Positions 5,841 to 37,179 of a stretch of DNA of 64,000 bases are shown here, in pieces. How positions within the stretch are numbered: the stretch's first letter is position 1; each line of letters opens with the position of its first letter. The stretch is taken from contig CAWDVW010000006.1 of assembly GCA_963805855.1 (NCBI GenBank), forward strand, positions 1 through 64,000. The letters run 5' to 3'. The notes beneath the pieces are model-generated. The model saw only the letters and a list, made by a program, of their open reading frames with translations, searched no databases and was not told where the DNA came from. A program made the translations under genes and the position numbers. The DNA is from Candidatus Dadabacteria bacterium (GTDB lineage: Bacteria > Desulfobacterota_D > UBA1144 > Nemesobacterales > CSP1-2).

Positions 5841-6095
5841 TTTGACGCTTAGAAGTAATTTTGGTTAATTGTTTTGGATTATTTCATGACCTATTTACTA
5901 TGACAAGGAAGTAGTTTCTACAATCAATTGTTATACCTTTCACAAGGATTAAAACATTTTTCTACATGAATAATTAAACTTCAATCCGATTGTTTTTCAG
6001 TTAAAGAAGTAGTAAAAAACTTATACTTGCAATAGTAATCAGATTCACTCTTTATATCTTCGTTGAGAGAAGCTCTGAAGGACTAAAACATAAAA

Positions 6096-28814: not shown

Positions 28815-29294
28815 TCATGCCTCGTGTTTTTTTCTTTCAAGCGCCCTAGTTTTTATGGCTCTTCCGATTTCCCAGTTCTCTTTATCCGTGTCGGTCAGGA
28901 CCTTTACTGAGGGTACAGGCTTCGGATTTCCGTTTTTGTCTATTGCAACGTATATGAAATATCCTTCGCAACAAAAATCTTTGTTGCCGGTGAATTTTTC
29001 GATCCTATGTACCTCAACACTCACAACCATCGATGTCTCGCCGGTGTATAGCACTCTTCCCTTTTGTTCTATAATATCCCCTAGTTTTATGGGTGTTTTA
29101 AAATCAAGCGCTTCGATGGACGCTGTGACAACCTCCTCGTTACAAAAAAGCATAGCAGCAAGCCCCCCGGTTATGTCCATAAAAGAGACAAGTGTGCCAC
29201 CAAATATGTTCCCGTAGTGATTGGTATGTGGTGGAAGAACCAGTTCGGTGTTGGTCACCTCAGTAGGTTCTTTAGCCTTCGATTCTTTTGACAT
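28815..29294 (-). CDS. Acyl-CoA thioesterase (hotdog fold, YciA-like)
   Basis: HTNHYGNIFGGTLVSFMD, VTASI, GETSMVV, YVAID..PKPVP. Confidence 0.93.
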   Translation of the reverse strand: MSKESKAKEPTEVTNTELVLPPHTNHYGNIFGGTLVSFMDITGGLAAMLFCNEEVVTASIEALDFKTPIKLGDIIEQKGRVLYTGETSMVVSVEVHRIEKFTGNKDFCCEGYFIYVAIDKNGNPKPVPSVKVLTDTDKENWEIGRAIKTRALERKKHEA

Positions 29295-29469
29295 TTGGAG
29301 TTCGCTTCTCCCCTCCTTGAATTGAATGAGTATTCAGGGATATTAGATTTTACCCACTTTGACTATTGGTTTCATTATTTAAAAGTTATGGCTCACGAAC
29401 GTCCAAAAAAAAATTTATGACGGCTTTTGTAAATTTGATTCTTTCTAGTTTGTCCCTGATAGTATTTGT

Positions 29470-30309
29470 ATGAATTCCTATCACTACAGGCGCGTTTCAT
29501 GTTTAGTAGAAGGTGTCGGTAAAGAATTTGAGTTTCTAGACTTTTCAAACATACTCCCCACAATCGTTTTATTAACAGTTCTTCTATCTTCCTATGACGA
29601 TGCATTAGCCGTAGGTGGTATTTCCAATACAAAGGTTATAGTGCCTAGCGCAGAATCGGTTCCTAAGAAGCATCTTGAGATTGAACCGTTTTTTGGTCTG
29701 GTCTTTGCCGATGATGAGGATAACTCGGTTGGATTCGATGCCGGCAGCCGTCTTACCTTTGGTTTATTGGATAACTTGGAGGCTGGTGCGAATATTGGGT
29801 ATCTGTCCATTGCGGATTCGGATGTCATAGATACAGAAGCGGATTTTGGGAATGTAGAGGCCGGAATGAAATTCAGGTTCATTGATGAAGGAGCTAACTT
29901 CCCCTTCTCGCTGGCGTACCAGGGTGGACTCACATTTCCAACCGGTGGCAGTAACGACCTCTGGGTGTTCGAGCCATTTGGATTTATTCTTACAAAAAAT
30001 TTCAGCGATTCATTCTCCATGGATGCAGATTTTGTTCTTGCCCTGGTTGAAGATAAAAGTGTCGGGTTCGTCGCTGAAATAGGTTTTGGATACTTTGTTA
30101 AACCCTGGTTTCAACCGGTCATTGAGGCTGGATATTCACTTGATAGTGCCGAAGGCGAAGATAGTATTTCCGTATTTAATGTAACCGCCGGGTTTACAGC
30201 TCCCGTATCGGAAATGCTGACGATAATTTTTGGAGTTACTCCCGATCTTCATACAAGGAATGTGGACAAAGAAATATTGATCACGGCAGCATTTACATTT
30301 CTTTTTTGA
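29470..30309 (+). CDS. Putative outer-membrane beta-barrel protein (start uncertain)
   Basis: Signal-like segment ending ALA; amphipathic strands; FGNVEAGMKFRF, GLTFPTG; C-terminal Phe. Confidence 0.7.
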   Translation: MNSYHYRRVSCLVEGVGKEFEFLDFSNILPTIVLLTVLLSSYDDALAVGGISNTKVIVPSAESVPKKHLEIEPFFGLVFADDEDNSVGFDAGSRLTFGLLDNLEAGANIGYLSIADSDVIDTEADFGNVEAGMKFRFIDEGANFPFSLAYQGGLTFPTGGSNDLWVFEPFGFILTKNFSDSFSMDADFVLALVEDKSVGFVAEIGFGYFVKPWFQPVIEAGYSLDSAEGEDSISVFNVTAGFTAPVSEMLTIIFGVTPDLHTRNVDKEILITAAFTFLF

Positions 30310-30377
30310 CGTGTTTAAAGTTATAGCGGAATTACAATTAAGCGGAATCCTGTATGTCCTCATTTCATTGATTTTCT

Positions 30378-30697
30378 GGAGGACTAAAGTCTCCTCCGCT
30401 ACAGCTTTGGCCTACTCGTGACAGAAGAGGGGTTCATTCCCATTGGTTTTCCTCGGGGCTTGTAGCAGTGCGGCGATCTCATGAACTGTCATTCCCGCGG
30501 ATTCCCCGTTAAGCTCATACGGGGACAAGCGTTGGCGGGAATCCATGTCTTTATGTCTTGATCCCCGATTACGGAATTCGGGGATGAAAATAGGGGATGG
30601 GTCGCATTTAGTCTTGCGAGGAGTGTCCCGCAAATGTAGCGGAAACCTTTAGGTTTCCATTTCATCAATTTTTAGAAGGAATAAAGTCCTCCGCTAC
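30378..30697. repeat. REP cluster containing a 62-bp heteromeric REP doublet (30636-30697) and an RPE-like hairpin (about 30487-30587)
   Basis: GTAGCGGAAACCTTTAGGTTTCC, 16-nt spacer, GAAGGAATAAAGTCCTCCGCTAC; GTCATTCCCGC..GCGGGAATCCA. Confidence 0.75.
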
Positions 30698-30706
30698 ATC
30701 CTCTCC

Positions 30707-30749
30707 TTGACATAGGAATATTTTTTCCTATAATTTAGACTAATCTAAA
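30707..30749 (+). promoter_or_regulatory. Consensus sigma70 promoter with an overlapping DtxR/MntR-type operator
   Basis: TTGACA (30707)-16 nt-TATAAT (30729), followed by the dyad TTTAGA-CTAA-TCTAAA (30734-30749). Confidence 0.75.
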
Positions 30750-30791
30750 CATTTTGATTGGTTGATCTAAAGATAAAATTAATACATTCAA

Positions 30792-31481
30792 ATGATAAGT
30801 CCGACGGTTGAAGATTATTTAAAAGCGATCTACAAGCTTCAAAAAGGGAAGGACAAGGTAACCACGTCCGCCATAGCTGAGAGGCTCCAACTATCTAACG
30901 CTACCGTGACTTCTATGATAAAGAAGCTGGCAAAGCAGAAATTTGTAAAACACATCTCCTATCATGGAGTTGTTTTGACAGATGCGGGTGAAAAGGTTGC
31001 TGTGAAGGTGATTCGTCGGCATAGGCTGGTCGAGCTTTTCTTGAAGGAGATTCTAAAGCTGGAGTGGGACAAGGTTCATGATGAAGCTGAAAAGCTCGAA
31101 CATTATATATCCGATGAAATTTTGGACAGTATAGACAGGGTCCTCGGATATCCCAAGGCCGATCCCCACGGAGATCCTATTCCGACCAAGGGTGGCGATA
31201 TCGAGAATATAGAAGATAGATATACCCTGGCCGATGCCGAAGTGGGTAAAACATTGACGATCCATAGCGTCAGTGATGGTGATCCCAATAAACTCCGCTT
31301 TATGTTTAAACTGGGATTACTTCCCGGCGTAAGTATAAGCATAAGGAGTAAGACTCCGTTTGAGGGAGATCTGGATATCAAGGTTGGCAAATCTCACTAT
31401 CACCTTCCGCTGGAGGTCGCAAAGAAGATTTATGTAACTCAGGTTGAAGAAACCCTCGATCAGGTGGACAAGAAGCATTAA
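30792..31481 (+). CDS. DtxR/MntR-family metal-dependent repressor with C-terminal FeoA/SH3 domain
   Basis: EDYLKAIYKL, RRHRLVELFL, VHDEAEKLEHYIS, DPHGDPIP. Confidence 0.96.
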   Translation: MISPTVEDYLKAIYKLQKGKDKVTTSAIAERLQLSNATVTSMIKKLAKQKFVKHISYHGVVLTDAGEKVAVKVIRRHRLVELFLKEILKLEWDKVHDEAEKLEHYISDEILDSIDRVLGYPKADPHGDPIPTKGGDIENIEDRYTLADAEVGKTLTIHSVSDGDPNKLRFMFKLGLLPGVSISIRSKTPFEGDLDIKVGKSHYHLPLEVAKKIYVTQVEETLDQVDKKH

Positions 31482-31502
31482 CTCGGAGAGGAATTAAAGA
31501 CA

Positions 31503-33407
31503 ATGAGATTTAGTCTTGAGCGAGTCAATGATAACTTGGCACGATACCTAGTAATTTTGTTGTTATTTTCCGTGCCGGCAAATGCACATATCATCAAAGA
31601 GGAGCCTTGGCATCCTATACCAGCAGCCTATCTTAGAGGTTTATTCTATGCAAATCTAAAACCGATTGACTGGGACTTGATTGAGAAGGATTTCATGACT
31701 GTTAACGAACCGGGGTATCAGTTTACCTCGGTTTATGAAGCCTTTAAGCCCTTAAAGGAATTTAGCGGCGAAGATTATGAATCCTTGATAAAAGATGCTA
31801 TTGCAAAGAAGGATAGGGTAGCACTTTACACAACCTCTACTCGGGCCGTTTCACAGTTGATAAGATTTCGTTTGGCTAAAGCACAAGAGAATCTTGGCAG
31901 ACCGGGCGTCGCGCTCGAGGAGTTGCATAACGCGAGGAGGATCTACAGGGCATTTGAAAACTTTCTCGAACAAGCCGATCAAAAGGCTTACGACAATATG
32001 GGAAAGGCCTGGCTGGAGATGTCAAGCAGCACGGGAAGCTCCGGTATCCTTGGAGTGGGTGGGATGGATGCCGATCCAAACAGGTTTGAAAATGCGAGGA
32101 ACGTTGTAGAGGATTATTTAATCGATAATTACGAGTCCGAAGAAAAGGCGGGCTCGAGTGAGATAATTCCTCTGCCAAAAAAGGTTATCGCTGCAAATGG
32201 CAATTTAGAGATCGCTCCTTGGTTACCTCCCGGAACCGATTTAAACGATCAGGATCCCCTGCCGCGTCTTGTACTTAATTTCGAGGAGAGGGGTCTGGAT
32301 GAAAAGGATTTATTCTTGGTTGCCTATGGTGATATGTTGTTTGACTCCCCTGAAATATTTGGAGAACCTGCAAGGAACCTGGGTATAGCTTGTTCTACCT
32401 GTCATAATCGGGGTGACATTAATAAACGGTTCCTAATTCCGGGTATAAGCCAAGAACAGGGTTCAGTGGATGTAGATGGCCACTTTTTTAATCATCGGTT
32501 TAATGATCACAGGAGCGATGCTCTTGATATACCAAGTCTAAGGGGTTTGCGCTTTACGGCTCCATACGGTAGGGACGGCAGATTCACAAGCCTCAGGGAT
32601 TTTGTACGAAACGTTATTGTGAACGAATTCAGTGGTGACGAGCCGACACCATTGATGCTAGATGCCATGGTGGCATATATGTTCGAATTCGACTGGCTTC
32701 CCTCAACTTATTTGAATCCGGACGGCACATTGAATGACAATGCATCGGTCGAATCTAAACGAGGGGAAGTAATCTTCAATACGCCCTTTAAAGGAATGGG
32801 TGGTCGAGCATGCAGTACATGCCATATACCTAGCGCTAATTTCATGGATGGTTTGAGGCACGATATTGAATCAGGGAAACCCGCCAGTCCAGGCGCTCGT
32901 GACAGTTTTTTCGATACCCCCACACTTATAAACATTAAATATACCTCTCCTTATTTTCATGACGGGTCTTTAGAATCGCTTTCGGACGTTGTGGATTGGT
33001 TTGACGAGCATCATCATCTCGGGCTTTCAAAAAAGCAGAAATCGGATTTAGCTTCATACCTTGAATCTGTCGGGACGGGAGGAGAACCATTTGAGGTATT
33101 CGACGAAAAGAACACGCGCTTTTTGATGGACTGGAAGGAACTTTCTACCTTTGTAAGCACGTTAAATACACTAATACCAGCCCAAGATAAGTTTCACACC
33201 GAGCTTCTCCTAAAAACGGTATCGAGCGATCTGAGAGTCGATGCAATTGGCTTGCAAGACCTTGGTCAGGCCCCAAAGGTGTATGCCCTGTCTGAAAAAT
33301 TAGAAGAAATACTCGATGCCGTAGAAGCAAACGATTGGAATAGTTGTACAGGACTTTGGACCGAATATCAGGAAATGGAAAAAGAGTACGGTTCTCAACT
33401 TAAGTGA
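31503..33407 (+). CDS. Secreted di-heme cytochrome c, CcP/MauG superfamily, with long N- and C-terminal helical extensions
   Basis: Signal ANA|H; two CSTCH motifs; IPSLRG, TAPYGRDGR, DTPTL..TSPYFHDGS. Confidence 0.88.
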   Translation: MRFSLERVNDNLARYLVILLLFSVPANAHIIKEEPWHPIPAAYLRGLFYANLKPIDWDLIEKDFMTVNEPGYQFTSVYEAFKPLKEFSGEDYESLIKDAIAKKDRVALYTTSTRAVSQLIRFRLAKAQENLGRPGVALEELHNARRIYRAFENFLEQADQKAYDNMGKAWLEMSSSTGSSGILGVGGMDADPNRFENARNVVEDYLIDNYESEEKAGSSEIIPLPKKVIAANGNLEIAPWLPPGTDLNDQDPLPRLVLNFEERGLDEKDLFLVAYGDMLFDSPEIFGEPARNLGIACSTCHNRGDINKRFLIPGISQEQGSVDVDGHFFNHRFNDHRSDALDIPSLRGLRFTAPYGRDGRFTSLRDFVRNVIVNEFSGDEPTPLMLDAMVAYMFEFDWLPSTYLNPDGTLNDNASVESKRGEVIFNTPFKGMGGRACSTCHIPSANFMDGLRHDIESGKPASPGARDSFFDTPTLINIKYTSPYFHDGSLESLSDVVDWFDEHHHLGLSKKQKSDLASYLESVGTGGEPFEVFDEKNTRFLMDWKELSTFVSTLNTLIPAQDKFHTELLLKTVSSDLRVDAIGLQDLGQAPKVYALSEKLEEILDAVEANDWNSCTGLWTEYQEMEKEYGSQLK

Positions 33408-33425
33408 TTAAATGGAGAGAAAGAG

Positions 33426-34319
33426 ATGAAAAGAGCGATGAAGATTTCATGGTGTTGTCTTTTATTTTTATTCGCTTTCTATTTTTGTTTCTCAAAGGCT
33501 GACGCTGTGTCTGATTTGGAAAAGGGAAAGCCCTTGGTGCTTGCGTTTATACCGCAGGAAAATCCTGAAAAACTGATTGGAGACATCAAGATTATTACTG
33601 AGTATCTTAAAAAAGAGATTGGTATACCGGTTAAGGGGTTTGTGACCCAGGATCACGCAGCGGCTGTGGAAGCCCTTAGGAACGGTGACGCAGATATATC
33701 CTTTATGGGTGGATTACCCTATGTCCTTGCTCATGACCAGATCGGGGCAGAGGTTATTCTATCCGAGTTGTACAGGGGAAGTCCCACATATCGGGGTCGG
33801 ATCTTCGTCAGAAGAGATAGCGGCATAAAAAAACTAGATGATCTTCGCGGCAAGAGCATTGCCTTTGCGGATCCCATATCCGAGTCCGGCTACATCTATC
33901 CGCTTGACGTGTTTGTGCAGGCCGGGCTTTTCAAACCCACTGATGACCCTCAGAAATTCTTCGGGACTGTGTATTTTGCGGGCGGTTATCAGCAGGCGAT
34001 TCAGGCTGTGGCGAATGGTTTGGTGGATGCAGCGGGATCCAGTCAATTTGCCGACTTGCTTTTAACTCCCAATCAACTGGAAAAGGTCACCTGGATAGCC
34101 GAGTCAAAGCCGATACCTTCTCACCTGGTCTGCGCCCGAAAGGATTTGGATGAGCGGAAAAAAGAGGCTTTTAAGAAAGCTATGTTGAAACTCAATCTGC
34201 CAGAATATAAACATCTTCTCAGGCATGTCTATAGCCCCGACGGTTACATCGAGGCTAATCACGGGGATTACGAGTCGGTTGAGGAGATGGCCAGGCTATA
34301 TGGATTCCTTAATAAATAG
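33426..34319 (+). CDS. PhnD/PtxB-like ABC substrate-binding protein with a non-canonical ligand pocket
   Basis: FIPQEN, DLRGKSIAFADPISESGY..P, AVANGLVDAA, ESKPIP; signal peptide. Confidence 0.88.
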   Translation: MKRAMKISWCCLLFLFAFYFCFSKADAVSDLEKGKPLVLAFIPQENPEKLIGDIKIITEYLKKEIGIPVKGFVTQDHAAAVEALRNGDADISFMGGLPYVLAHDQIGAEVILSELYRGSPTYRGRIFVRRDSGIKKLDDLRGKSIAFADPISESGYIYPLDVFVQAGLFKPTDDPQKFFGTVYFAGGYQQAIQAVANGLVDAAGSSQFADLLLTPNQLEKVTWIAESKPIPSHLVCARKDLDERKKEAFKKAMLKLNLPEYKHLLRHVYSPDGYIEANHGDYESVEEMARLYGFLNK

Positions 34320-34330
34320 AGGAGCTTTAG

Positions 34331-35182
34331 ATGGAAGTAATCATAAATGCAGAGGGTACAATAGAAAGTTCTCAGGATAAAAAGGCCTCAAATGCAGTTT
34401 CGATGAAGGATATAAAGGTTCGCTATACCCGAAGCGGTCCTGTAGTACTAGACATAGAGCGGCTGGATATACATAAAGGGGAGCGAGTTTCTATAATTGG
34501 TCCGAGTGGTGCGGGCAAGACGACACTTTTGCGGTTGATCAATGGTTATGTTAACCCAGAATCCGGCCACATAAAGATTTTTGAATACAATAACGATATG
34601 GGATCAATCCGACAGGGAAATCTCAGGCGCAGGATAGGCTTTATCTTTCAGCATTTTAATTTAATCGACCGCGCTACAGTTTTTGAAAACGTATTGTGGG
34701 GCAGATTGGGGATCGTTAACCCCTTTCTAAGTGTATTCGGATGGTTTCCGCAGCGGGATAAGAAAGCGGCTATGAGAGCGATAAAGGAGGTAAATCTCGA
34801 AGAACAGGCAGGTCAGCGAACCGATACCCTGAGCGGAGGGCAGTTGCAAAGGGTTGCGATCGCAAGGGTATTGGCTCAGGAGGCTGAGATCATCTTGGCA
34901 GATGAACCTGTCAGCAATCTCGATCCCTCATTGGCTGATGATATTCTTGGATTGCTTGGAGAGGTTAGTAGCAGGCATGGGGTTACGCTGATAATGAATC
35001 TTCATCAACCCGCCCTTGCACAGCACTATGCCGACCGCATCATTGGATTGAGGGAAGGAAGGATCGTCTACGATAATGAAGCAAGGTTTCTACAAGCTGT
35101 TTCCCTTCGCTCTATCTTTGACCCCGGGATAAACATATCTCAAATGTTTAGTTCAAATGTACAAGAAAAACCTTCCTATTGA
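34331..35182 (+). CDS. PhnC-like ABC ATPase
   Basis: GPSGAGKTT, IGFIFQHFNL, LSGGQLQRVAIAR, ILADEPVSNLDP, NLHQ. Confidence 0.93.
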   Translation: MEVIINAEGTIESSQDKKASNAVSMKDIKVRYTRSGPVVLDIERLDIHKGERVSIIGPSGAGKTTLLRLINGYVNPESGHIKIFEYNNDMGSIRQGNLRRRIGFIFQHFNLIDRATVFENVLWGRLGIVNPFLSVFGWFPQRDKKAAMRAIKEVNLEEQAGQRTDTLSGGQLQRVAIARVLAQEAEIILADEPVSNLDPSLADDILGLLGEVSSRHGVTLIMNLHQPALAQHYADRIIGLREGRIVYDNEARFLQAVSLRSIFDPGINISQMFSSNVQEKPSY

Positions 35183-35975
35183 AGGTGGAATCCAGGGACT
35201 GGATTATCCGCGCCCAAGACTAATCGATAGTATCTGGCGTGCAGGCGGTATATTATTCTTGGTAATTCTTATAGCCTGGGCATGGTCAGGTACGGATTTT
35301 AATGTTAAAAAGCTTCTCAGCAGTATGCCACGCATGGCGGATTTTTTCGGCCGGATGGTTCCACCCGATATGAGCGTTGCAAAAACGGTATTTGTTTCAA
35401 CTGGTGAGACGGTGCAGATAGCGTTGTTTGGAACCTTCATCAGCGCTGTAGTATCATTCTTCTTCGGCCTTCTTGCGGCAGAGAATATTTCGCCGCGCTG
35501 GGTTAGTCAACCGATCAAGTGGTTTTTGGCAGTCCTTAGGGGTATTCCAGTAATCCTGTTGGCTCTTATGTTTGTCAGTACAGTAGGGTTGGGACCCTTT
35601 CCGGGTGTGTTAGCGATAGCTTTCCATTCCACCGGCATGTTAGGCAAGTTCTATGCTGAGGCGATTGAGAACGCCAGGAGTGGGCCTCTGGAGGCCCTTG
35701 ATAGCGTCGGTGCAAACCTCTGGCAGAGGATGCGTTTCGGAATTCTGACACAGGTCGGCCCCGATCTGGCAAGAGACACTTTGTTTAGGTTTGAATTAAA
35801 CCTTCGTGAGTCGTTAGTCCTGGGGCTTGTTGGAGCAGGCGGAATTGGTTTCTATATTTTACTCTACATACGTGCATTTCAATATGAGAAGGTCGCAACG
35901 CTTACGGTTGTAGTTCTTCTGATGGTAGTTATTGTTGAGCAAATAAGCGTTGCTGTGCGGAGGAGTCTGAGATAG
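35157..35975 (+). CDS. PhnE-like ABC permease
   Basis: ETVQIA, GLGPFPGVLAI, GMLGKFYAEAIE, RFELNLRESLVLGLVGAGGIG. Confidence 0.93.
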   Translation: MYKKNLPIEGGIQGLDYPRPRLIDSIWRAGGILFLVILIAWAWSGTDFNVKKLLSSMPRMADFFGRMVPPDMSVAKTVFVSTGETVQIALFGTFISAVVSFFFGLLAAENISPRWVSQPIKWFLAVLRGIPVILLALMFVSTVGLGPFPGVLAIAFHSTGMLGKFYAEAIENARSGPLEALDSVGANLWQRMRFGILTQVGPDLARDTLFRFELNLRESLVLGLVGAGGIGFYILLYIRAFQYEKVATLTVVVLLMVVIVEQISVAVRRSLR

Positions 35976-36100
35976 CTTGAATCTTACCAATTCTCATCAG
36001 GACTCCTTTTCTGGTATTGTTATATGCTAATCTAAATATATATCTCTAATCTTAGGTTTGAGGAATGAAGTAAATTATCTTTGATCAGGTTTTTAAGTTA

Positions 36101-36718
36101 ATGATTGATGATAAAACCAAGCTTAAAAGTTACAGTTACCTCAGTAAGTTGTACGCTAGAACAGGAGCATCTGTTCTAAATCCGGTTAGGGGCGTATATA
36201 GACTGGGTCAAGAATTGGGCTTCGAAAACGGAGAGATCGACGATATTCTTAATTACATTAGTAATGAAGGTCTAGCAATCGTGTATTTAAGCGAAGAAAA
36301 GGTAACAATCACAAATAAGGGAATCGGTGCAGTAGAGGAGGCGGAGTTAAATCCGGTGGCCACTACCAAATATTTCCCGGCTATCATAGGGGTTAGGAGT
36401 TTTGGTGGATCAGATGAATCGCAGTTACCAAAAAAGTCTTATGAAGCAAGGCGTGACACTGAAATAAGGTCAATTAAATTCAAGGAATTAAAAAAATCAA
36501 CGGAGCTGATAAAAGGCTCAATGGATAAACTGCAAATGACACCGGAACTTAAATCCAAGCTAAAGGCTGAATTAATCACGATAGATGTTCAAATCTCTCA
36601 ACCTAAACCGGATGTAGATGTAATCAGAGAATGCGTAGGTTCTATCAGGAGTATTCTTGAAAATGCCACCGATAGCCTGTTAGTCAGAAGATTGATGAGC
36701 CAGTTAATGAACCTCTGA
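36101..36718 (+). CDS. Hypothetical protein, N-terminal winged-helix-like
   Basis: 205-aa ORF; LGQELGF..ILNYISNEGL..ITNKGI. Confidence 0.6.
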   Translation: MIDDKTKLKSYSYLSKLYARTGASVLNPVRGVYRLGQELGFENGEIDDILNYISNEGLAIVYLSEEKVTITNKGIGAVEEAELNPVATTKYFPAIIGVRSFGGSDESQLPKKSYEARRDTEIRSIKFKELKKSTELIKGSMDKLQMTPELKSKLKAELITIDVQISQPKPDVDVIRECVGSIRSILENATDSLLVRRLMSQLMNL

Positions 36719-36753
36719 GCTAATGAAACGTTGCCCTTTCATGCGAGTTATTA

Positions 36754-37179
36754 TTATTCACCCTTAATTATTTCTTCTACTTTAATTCTAAATACCAGAT
36801 TCTTTCCAGCAAGTGGGTGATTGTAATCAACCTCTACTTCTTTTCCGGAGATGGATATTATTGTACAGTCCCCATTTATTGTCCTGATCCTAATGCCTAC
36901 CCGCGGTTCAATCTTGTTATTTTTAAAATATTCAATCGGGATTGTTCTGATAAAGTTATCATCAATATTGCCGTAGGCTTCTGCAGGTTTGACACTAAAT
37001 GACTTTTCTTCTCCTAGTGTCATTCCCATTATGGCGCTATCAAGGCACCTTATCAATTCCCCAGTGCCAATCCTCTTTGAAATAGGTTTATCTGATTTCT
37101 GAACAGGTGTGCCATCGTCGAGCATTGTTTCACAGAAAAATTTAACTGTGTCTCCAGCTTTAACTTTTCCTTCTCCCAT
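36754..37179 (-). CDS. FKBP-type peptidyl-prolyl isomerase (SlyD-like)
   Basis: VKAGDTV, GMTLGEEK, PAEAYG, VDYNHPLAGKNLVF. Confidence 0.93.
   Translation of the reverse strand: MGEGKVKAGDTVKFFCETMLDDGTPVQKSDKPISKRIGTGELIRCLDSAIMGMTLGEEKSFSVKPAEAYGNIDDNFIRTIPIEYFKNNKIEPRVGIRIRTINGDCTIISISGKEVEVDYNHPLAGKNLVFRIKVEEIIKGE

Follow-up and report, generated by a model that had tools for sequence, protein, structure and literature searches.

The phosphonate-binding family of periplasmic proteins (PF12974) is known to take phosphonates, phosphite, hypophosphite and phosphate as ligands and, by the titles of Protein Data Bank (PDB) entries, also arsenite and arsenate (AioX, ArrX), glycerol phosphates (GpxB) and a sterol. 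In solved complexes, the oxyanion is contacted directly by an STS-H motif, a hinge Tyr, a capping Tyr and, in HtxB, W52 (PMC5700983, partial text). We describe here a member of this family from a 64,000-nt stretch of a Candidatus Dadabacteria genome (contig CAWDVW010000006.1, positions 1 to 64,000; hereafter, the window). It is encoded in a five-gene operon that runs from an MntR-like repressor through a di-haem protein and the binding protein itself to a PhnC-type ATPase and a PhnE-type permease. On balance, we lean towards the view that it serves in the periplasm as the binding protein of an ABC system for metal uptake that responds to manganese and derives from the phosphonate/phosphite transporter family; that its ligand is a metal cation of some kind appears probable. 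A first-pass annotation, made from the letters of the stretch alone, had read the protein as a metal binder by convergence with FbpA, and had overlooked the obligate di-haem partner.

With PtxB, HtxB and PhnD (5o2j, 5lv1, 5me4, 3p7i), the protein shares the sequence family, the fold, the hinge Tyr and partners of the PhnC/PhnE type. It differs from them in having SES-Y for STS-H, a His for the capping Tyr (an Asp in PhnD-type proteins) and a His for the Tyr of the "DY" motif, as well as in its MntR regulation instead of a phosphorus signal and in its obligate di-haem partner. With FbpA, FutA, HitA and transferrin, it has in common a type II fold and one His, one carboxylate and two Tyr, and its candidate ligands appear to come in the same chain order as transferrin's Asp, Tyr, anion helix, Tyr and His. 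Unlike these proteins, it belongs to another sequence family, has a regulation that points to manganese and is accompanied in its operon by a haem protein.

A redox enzyme working with a binder of the oxidised, hard metal ion, as proposed here, is found in EfeUOB, in Fet3-Ftr1 and in ceruloplasmin with transferrin; in the present case, however, the putative enzyme is a di-haem relative of bacterial cytochrome c peroxidase (bCCP) and MauG, and the acceptor would be an ABC binding protein. Di-haem proteins that act on a periplasmic partner encoded next to them are MauG, with pre-methylamine dehydrogenase, and MbnH, with MbnP, and the haem core of the protein described here resembles theirs (Z 10.9-11.5). 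Compared with MauG and MbnH, its sequence similarity is weak, it has additional helical domains, about 230 and 100 residues long, and its partner is the binding protein of an ABC importer.

The manganese importers treated in a 2022 review are NRAMP proteins, PsaBCA-type ABC systems, ZIP proteins, outer-membrane proteins such as MnoP and a type VI route, and the available text of that review contains no PhnD-type system (PMC9334652). MntABC, SitABCD, PsaBCA and MntH are under MntR or Mur control (PMC9334652 and PMC1698941, partial texts), as is predicted for the cassette described here, whose gene stands beside mntR where other alphaproteobacteria have mntH. In contrast to the cluster A-I importers, it shows no similarity to PF01297 and has another fold, a type I permease (PF00528) and Tyr among the candidate ligands. 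We found no metal-cation binder in the phosphonate-binding family and, in a literature search that left subscription journals mostly uncovered, no report in which a PhnD-like protein is tied to metal binding, to MntR or to a di-haem partner.

The binding protein and its pocket

The binding protein matches PF12974 at 211.5 bits against a cut-off of 27 (Pfam) and TIGR01098 at 187.1 bits against 112.05 (NCBIfam), and it misses the PhnD equivalog TIGR03431 (175.2 bits against 261.1). PtxB is aligned to it at an E value of 4e-25 in a HMMER comparison with solved chains. There was no match at E ≤0.01 in the Pfam scan to PF01297, which covers the cluster A-I manganese and zinc binding proteins, and the protein is not a member of the FbpA/transferrin sequence families, the only match there being to SBP_bac_11 (E 0.0036, 17.5 bits against a cut-off of 25). 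An AlphaFold2 model, built with 19 homologues in the alignment (pLDDT 87.1, pTM 0.79), is superposed best on closed, ligand-bound ArrX (Z 26.3) and on PtxB 5o2j (Z 26.2; root-mean-square deviation (rmsd) 3.1, 252 residues), a comparison with PtxB that had been suggested with the first-pass annotation. Over all PtxB and ArrX superpositions, the predicted structure deviates by 2.7-3.1 for 251-252 residues. Foldseek gives the model TM-scores of 0.80-0.86 with liganded forms of the family and 0.68 with apo PtxB, with E values of 1e-23 to 1e-25 against family structures. Outside the family, a transferrin lobe comes closest in fold (Z 20.0, rmsd 4.1 over 256 aligned residues); FbpA, FutA and HitA are superposed on the model at about Z 13.

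In the pocket, the first-pass annotation had placed H77, Y122, E153, Y188 and H233, with the canonical DY changed to DH, STS to SES, GxH to GGY and IPxD to IPSH and with Y122 retained. The positions agree with the sequence, and the exchanges are recovered in HMMER alignments with PtxB and HtxB and in comparison with canonical representatives. H77 is aligned to the Tyr of "DY" in PtxB and to W52 in HtxB, and Y122 to the hinge Tyr; E153 lies in an S-E-S that takes the place of S-T-S, Y188 in a G-G-Y that takes the place of G-x-H, and H233 in an IPSH that takes the place of IPQY, the Tyr of which is the capping Tyr of PtxB (canonical PhnD-type representatives have P-N-D). The latch Asp described in the PtxB/HtxB structure paper is aligned to Q44 (PMC5700983, partial text). 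Because they are aligned to contact residues of solved PtxB and HtxB (PMC5700983, partial text), the five positions correspond to the ligand contacts of the family, and by homology to the closed PtxB complexes we infer that the five side chains meet in the cleft. The P-oxyanion motif of S-T-S, His and capping Tyr or Asp is not kept in the binding protein, which has SES, Tyr188 and His233 instead, and the exchange of Thr for Glu in the STS loop would be expected to repel anions.

These changes belong to a clade that is narrow in sequence and wide in taxonomy. A search of 5.8 billion proteins gave 3061 candidates and 1364 matches with E ≤1e-10, the best 120 of which are all 68-98% identical to the binding protein despite coming from several phyla. 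The source names of the matches call clade genes "phosphonate ABC transporter" throughout, an annotation that is very probably wrong for the clade. A genome scan with one genome per species found 258 loci with a relative, of which the best 80 were kept, with identities to the window protein of 60-96% (median 68%). These 80 loci span about 7 phyla and are labelled as Thermodesulfobacteriota/Dadabacteria and similar (10), Acidobacteriota (10), Chloroflexota (6), Spirochaetota (3), Trueperaceae (2), Methylomirabilales (1), unclassified (1) and Alphaproteobacteria or Proteobacteria (47), the last including the cultured genera Ruegeria, Roseovarius, Bosea and Hoeflea.

When the window protein is counted with these 80 relatives, Y122, E153, Y188 and H233 are each present in 81 of 81 sequences and H77 in 77, with Gln in its place in three Spirochaetota loci and Ser in L071; all five are invariant in the alignment of 19 diverse members. 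Such a pattern goes far past what chance would give. Q44, Y116, D149, Q189 and Q190 are likewise found in 81 of 81, and S152, S154 and G155, at a helix N-terminus, are kept in the clade. Past the clade, scores in an exhaustive search of representatives clustered at 50% identity drop steeply, from 417 to 300 bits and lower, and His77 and Glu153 are seen in none of 27 more distant PF12974 representatives, the canonical members of which have DY, STS, GGH and PND. Y188 and H233 are not exclusive to the clade, some sister clades already having GGY and PxH. The clade is defined by an invariant core of a His, a Glu and two Tyr, which H77 joins as a fifth residue in most members.

FbpA and transferrin hold Fe(III) by a His, a carboxylate and two Tyr, and the likeness to FbpA drawn in the first-pass annotation is upheld to this extent, the same composition being invariant here. 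The claim that the oxyanion-binding residues are replaced is also borne out, since the replacements are both clade-specific and strictly conserved. Its proposed site of two His, two Tyr and a Glu has to be narrowed: H233, E153, Y122 and Y188 are invariant, whereas H77 is dispensable in the clade.

One sister clade, with DY, S-S/T-S, GGY and PxH, was seen in 14 metagenome loci (L110-L123), where a binding protein is encoded with PhnC and PhnE and without a di-haem gene. These loci adjoin archaeal-type genes (SecY, Cbf5-like, plastocyanin-like), and the neighbours give no hint of the ligand.

The operon, its operator and its regulators

The genes of the operon are separated by gaps of 21, 18 and 11 nt, followed by a 26-nt overlap of the ATPase and permease genes (Table 1). 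The operon promoter is the best of 15 promoter-like sites in positions 29200-36800. The perfect palindrome TTTAGA-N4-TCTAAA occurs as a single copy in the 3.11-Mb genome, is found at the same place in five relatives (L001, L002, L003, L014, L018) and resembles alphaproteobacterial MntR boxes, e.g. AATaTAGCCAaGGCTACAcT (PMC1698941 Table S5, partial text).

The window proteins were mapped onto the 80 loci. Wherever sequence upstream of the binding-protein gene is available, the di-haem gene is its immediate upstream neighbour (76 of 76 loci); L020 and L067 are among them, their di-haem open reading frames (ORFs) stopping at 5870 and 5923, ahead of the match at 6001. PhnC and PhnE are encoded downstream of the binding protein in 73 of 74 loci, and L017 has both upstream of the di-haem gene. 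A fusion of ATPase and permease, about 565 aa long, is encoded in L006 (6810-8507; Methylomirabilales) and in L008 (one unclassified relative).

Of the DtxR-family genes that adjoin the cassette in 31 loci, 7 share its strand and 24 are divergent. The operator was scanned for in the promoter regions of the 70 loci with sufficient upstream DNA as TTAG-N6-CTAA with at most one mismatch, over 450 nt or, for the same-strand class, 1150 nt. It was found in 24/24 loci with a divergent regulator gene, in 6/7 with one on the same strand and in 12/39 with no adjacent regulator gene, against a background of 0.055 per kb elsewhere in the loci; 42 of the 70 cassettes come with a regulator of the MntR type or its operator. 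In the alphaproteobacterial loci, the operator site comes after a TTGACA-17-GATAAA promoter. A scan with a fuzzy Mur-box (MRS) pattern was dropped as evidence, the background of 0.19 per kb being too noisy. By eye, Mur-box-like sites comparable to those of Table S4 in PMC1698941 (partial text) are seen in L042 and L044 (TTGCAAATCAGTTGCAAC against the published AaTGCAAATaAgTcGCAAc) and, in weaker form, in L019, L025, L028 and L069. In Rhizobiales and Rhodobacteraceae, the Fur homologue is a manganese regulator (PMC1698941, partial text). The neighbour survey covered 49 ORFs from 8 loci and 126 of 182 flanking ORFs from 43 loci, with L071-L080 left out. An Nramp gene (mntH) is the divergent neighbour in Bosea L042, and the cassette has Fur-family genes beside it in L029 and L033 and CDF genes in L028 and L038.

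The metal preference of the regulators, as far as their sequences allow, points to manganese rather than iron. The iron site of DtxR consists of Met10, Cys102, Glu105 and His106, and that for manganese in Bacillus subtilis MntR of Asp8, Glu99, Glu102 and His103 (PMC4805248, partial text). An Asp is found at the MntR-D8 position in 31 of 31 linked regulators and in the window's own, and the linked regulators have a carboxylate at the E99 position (30 Glu and, in L041, 1 Asp), Met or Cys being present in none. All six regulators tested of the 24 divergent alphaproteobacterial ones pass the MntR equivalog NF008273 (194-207 bits against a cut-off of 153). The metal site of the window regulator is of the manganese type (EDY..., EAEKLEH); its best NCBIfam model is the Thermus-type MntR, at 174.7 bits under a cut-off of 350, and its closest PDB relatives are 5zr4 (8e-44), 8pvt (6e-35), ScaR, SloR and 6o5c, with DtxR/IdeR at 1e-19 to 1e-21. 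We take 5zr4 and 8pvt to be manganese sensors of Mycobacterium and Deinococcus, the latter backed by a preprint title only, and ScaR and SloR to be manganese sensors as well. The only other DtxR-family gene of the genome encodes a 218-aa protein with a Cys site (TACELEH) directly downstream of feoB (contig C7:561570-564372), and this paralogue is probably the iron sensor of the organism, so that an iron-type and a manganese-type sensor would stand in contrast inside one genome. Multi-haem cytochrome-like and 4Fe-4S genes come after it.

In the window's own genome (9 contigs, 93.8% complete), the binding-protein gene is the single PF12974 gene. Neither Nramp nor PhnJ was found in this assembly, other phosphonate and phosphite pathways not having been searched. 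One TroA/ZnuA-family protein is encoded, with 88.6 bits to AztC and 76.3 bits to MntC, both far under cut-off. Among five cassette-bearing Rhodobacterales genomes, none has a full Nramp match, a partial one in G003 (52.6 bits) being the sole one over the family cut-off; two of the five have ZnuA-like TroA-family proteins only, and three have a second, ambiguous one. Sorting of TroA-family proteins into zinc and manganese types by NCBIfam was set aside, all being under cut-off and ambiguous. The scarcity of other importers fits the role of a manganese importer without proving it.

Cassette permeases (n=76) have in common an invariant set of H157, M161, Y166, R206-D207-T208, Y233, Y237 and R239, residues that differ from those of 9 canonical PhnE sequences of the same Rhodobacterales genomes; the His, Met and Asp would suit a cation path. 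Upstream of the operon, a protein of the Phenol_MetA_deg family is probably the outer-membrane entry channel of the system. Its homologue lies upstream of the cassette in eight loci (L001, L002, L003, L014, L018, L020, L021, L023), and the operator motif precedes the gene in 8/8 relatives having it, in tandem in three Acidobacteriota loci where this gene opens the operon. The window gene has no operator ahead of it (29440-29475) because about 150 nt are absent in comparison with the 94%-identical L001, where this stretch holds a promoter and an operator, and the window gene may therefore have escaped from the regulon.

Two further features of the region were noted. The spacer of 480 nt before the operon promoter (30360-30700) contains repeated GC-rich hairpin-like elements, found in part in L001, among them an inverted repeat at 30634-30665 and a GGAGGACTAAAGTC..CTCCGCTACA-like unit that occurs twice. 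Downstream of the operon, a 205-aa ORF (36101-36718) has no family match and is kept only in the two closest relatives, L001 and L018.

Table 1. Positions of the genes and control elements of the locus in the window
Feature	Positions	Strand	Remarks
Outer-membrane protein, Phenol_MetA_deg family	29470..30309	+	PF13557, 27.2 bits against a cut-off of 22
Sigma-70 promoter TTGACA-16 nt-TATAAT	30707..30734	+	12/12 consensus matches
Operator palindrome TTTAGA-N4-TCTAAA, predicted MntR-like site	30734..30749	.	Overlaps the -10 box
DtxR/MntR-family repressor	30792..31481	+	Pfam Fe_dep_repress, Fe_dep_repr_C, FeoA; C-terminal FeoA/SH3-like domain
Di-haem protein of the bCCP/MauG superfamily	31503..33407	+	634 aa, secreted; two CxxCH; CCP_MauG
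Binding protein with PhnD/PtxB fold	33426..34319	+	297 aa, secreted; pocket H77, Y122, E153, Y188, H233
PhnC-type ABC ATPase	34331..35182	+	TIGR02315, 257.5 bits, just below the cut-off of 266.1; Pfam ABC_tran
PhnE-type permease	35157..35975	+	TIGR01097, 275.8 bits against a cut-off of 216.7

The di-haem partner and its predicted complex

The two CxxCH motifs of the di-haem protein (C297/C300/H301 and C437/C440/H441) are invariant in 73 sequences, and the di-haem core, about residues 240-560, is very strongly conserved. The match to PF03150 (CCP_MauG; 41.9 bits against a cut-off of 25.6) covers residues 433-497 only. In the predicted model (pLDDT 79.2, pTM 0.73), residues 257-575 match the bCCP 3o5c (Z 11.9, 237 residues), an MbnH-like protein (Z 11.5) and MauG (Z 10.9). 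To this core are added an extra helical N-terminal domain of about 200-230 residues, for which the ESM Atlas gave no usable match, and a C-terminal four-helix bundle of about 100; structural matches of the bundle (Z ≤13) were set aside as non-specific for helical bundles. Where the 3o5c peroxidase has "TM", the HMMER alignment places "WF" (W499, F500), at a position that presumably provides the sixth ligand of the second haem, a Met in bCCP and a Tyr in MauG. In most non-alphaproteobacterial relatives, the predicted mature chain starts with a His, which follows the A of A|HI(V/I)xE(E)PWHP (31587-31610 in the window), and this N-terminal His could take part in metal handling.

A complex of di-haem protein 29-634, with two haems and one Mn riding along, and binding protein 28-297 was predicted with ipSAE values of 0.67, 0.66 and 0.68; the best of 3 controls reached 0.00. 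The mark applied is reached by 116 of 157 solved complexes and by 2 of 215 mismatched pairs, counts that give only a rough calibration because our own alignments and riding ligands were used. The runs share at least 83% of contacts, with a partner pLDDT of at least 84. On the binding protein, the predicted interface rings the entrance of the pocket (residues 43, 75-79, 149-151, 182-186 and 189-190, and more on both lobes); on the di-haem protein, it would comprise residues 31 and 33-34 at the mature start, 133-142, 164-188 and, in the C-terminal bundle, 578-594. G167, W170, L171 and G181, which lie in this interface, are among the few invariant residues of the variable N-terminal domain. Since we know of no solved complex of these two families, a memorised complex is unlikely. 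The model supports, without proving, a di-haem protein that sits over the mouth of the binding cleft.

Proposed manganese uptake and the alternatives

In the mechanism that we propose, scarcity of manganese would take the MntR-like repressor off the operator overlapping the -10 box, and the operon would be transcribed. The metal would pass the outer membrane, probably via the MetA-like channel, and would be handled by the di-haem protein, the helical domains of which would cap the cleft mouth of the binding protein; the former oxyanion pocket would then bind it by H233, E153, Y122 and Y188, with help from H77 in most lineages, and it would be handed to the PhnE/PhnC-type translocator. Judging from their predicted products, the surroundings of the gene are those of metal homeostasis, not of phosphorus. 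The sequences and models show the family and fold of the protein, the exchanged residues and their conservation, the operon, the constant di-haem partner and the MntR-type regulators and operators; that the ligand is a metal cation, that this metal is manganese, which oxidation state it has and what the haems do are what we infer.

Several points weigh against this proposal. Known Mn(II) binding proteins use His and carboxylate ligands, and we know of none with Tyr; by analogy, a core of His, Glu and two Tyr would fit iron or Mn(III) better than Mn(II). H77 is absent in 4 of the 81 sequences, with Gln or Ser in its place, and S152, S154 and G155 are kept, so that an anion could still bind, alone or with a metal. 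A recognised MntR-type operator is missing from the searched stretch in 27 of the 70 loci (neither motif in 23, only a weak MRS-pattern match in 4), and the genome's own TroA-family protein could serve this organism as manganese importer. Copper-chaperone and copper-efflux genes recur at a distance of a few kb from the cassette in at least nine alphaproteobacterial loci: SCO1/SenC in L028, L052, L064, L068 and L070, PCuAC in L019, L062 and L064, and CtaG with a P-type ATPase in L063; L042 also has YtkA-like and CusB-like genes, and in L064 and L070 the copper genes share the strand of the permease gene and come shortly downstream of it. They may reflect a metal island or a functional link. Finally, TroR is, by the title of PMC2628430, an MntR-like regulator that also answers to iron.

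The ligand set, which is like that for Fe(III), and the docked haem protein together make a trivalent ion plausible, which would be Mn(III) on the evidence of the regulators and Fe(III) should that evidence be discounted. This suggests a bolder form of the manganese proposal, which we put forward only tentatively: uptake would be redox-assisted, the docked di-haem enzyme altering the oxidation state of manganese and handing the ion to the transferrin-like His/Glu/Tyr/Tyr site for PhnCE-type import. The reaction would most plausibly be the oxidation of Mn(II) to Mn(III) with peroxide or oxygen, or else the reduction of environmental Mn(III)/Mn(IV). Such a route would be a way round poor Mn(II) selectivity, because only manganese and iron could be captured as trivalent ions.

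If iron itself were the ligand, Fe(III) would be bound by His233, Glu153, Tyr122 and Tyr188, and the di-haem protein would be a periplasmic ferroxidase following the logic of EfeUOB. The invariant core of His, Glu and two Tyr would suit this, as would the transferrin lobe as nearest fold outside the family, with FbpA, FutA and HitA further away; a DtxR-family regulator with a FeoA-type domain fits a metal system, Fur-family genes are neighbours in two loci, and some MntR-like regulators are iron-responsive as well (PMC2628430, title). Against it stand the regulators, with their manganese-type Asp/carboxylate site in 31/31 and no Met/Cys site, 6/6 of those tested being over the MntR equivalog cut-off; the pairing of the genome's Cys-type paralogue with feoB; and, in Bosea, the neighbouring mntH and the sites resembling Mur boxes, Fur homologues being manganese regulators there (PMC1698941, partial text). 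Iron as the ligand is not supported because the linked regulators are of the manganese type and the Cys-type paralogue sits at feoB, and we consider it unlikely. The metal site proposed in the first-pass annotation is supported indirectly by the composition of the core, by the nearness of the transferrin fold and by the metal-homeostasis genes around it; iron as its metal is not, in view of the regulators, the feoB-linked paralogue and the Mur-box-like sites and mntH of the relatives.

Less probable again is that the di-haem protein is a maturase of the MauG/MbnH type, which would oxidise a Tyr or His of the binding protein and so create the real ligand site, for copper or another ion. MbnH oxidises a residue of the copper protein MbnP, and two His with two Tyr form a known Cu(II) site in galactose oxidase. 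The haem core has the MbnH family (TIGR04039 1.3e-13; 6e1c) and MauG among its strongest NCBIfam and PDB matches, the pairing is obligate (76/76), the predicted complex passes the mark, and copper-chaperone genes recur near alphaproteobacterial cassettes. However, the predicted interface lies on the helical domains and not on the haem core, no Trp is invariant in the clade, regulation is of the manganese MntR type with no copper sensor adjoining the cassette in the surveyed loci, and the copper genes occur in alphaproteobacteria only, mostly outside the operon. W223, considered as a MauG-like Trp target, is invariant in the alignment of 19 rows and falls short of 80/81 in the larger set.

Least probable of all, and by our estimate very improbable, is that the protein still takes an anion, a phosphorus compound or another small non-metal ligand, with the regulator and the haem protein serving an unrelated function such as peroxide defence: family membership by sequence and fold, the retained S152, S154, G155 and hinge Tyr, a PhnE model score over cut-off and the ligand shifts known in the family (arsenite/arsenate, sterol and glycerol phosphate, by PDB titles) would allow it, but it is opposed by the Glu in the anion loop, the loss of the His of STS-H and of the capping residue, the missed TIGR03431, the lack of a PhnJ match in the genome assembly, the tight operon behind an MntR-type operator and the strict pairing with a haem protein for which docking on the cleft is predicted.

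Should manganese uptake by this system be confirmed, it would add a third family of manganese/metal ABC binding proteins; the protein would be the first in the phosphonate-binding family to bind a metal cation, and its transporter the first ABC importer to depend on an obligate haem partner. A transferrin-type site would also have arisen a second time, on the fold nearest to transferrin, and in the redox version the system would be a bacterial counterpart of ceruloplasmin and transferrin. Since the genes are annotated as "phosphonate", phosphorus-cycle surveys based on phnD, phnC and phnE include genes that are probably unrelated to phosphorus. The carriers include Roseobacter-group bacteria, Dadabacteria, Acidobacteriota, Chloroflexota and others, and the cassette would be a candidate manganese importer for bacteria without MntH and SitABCD.

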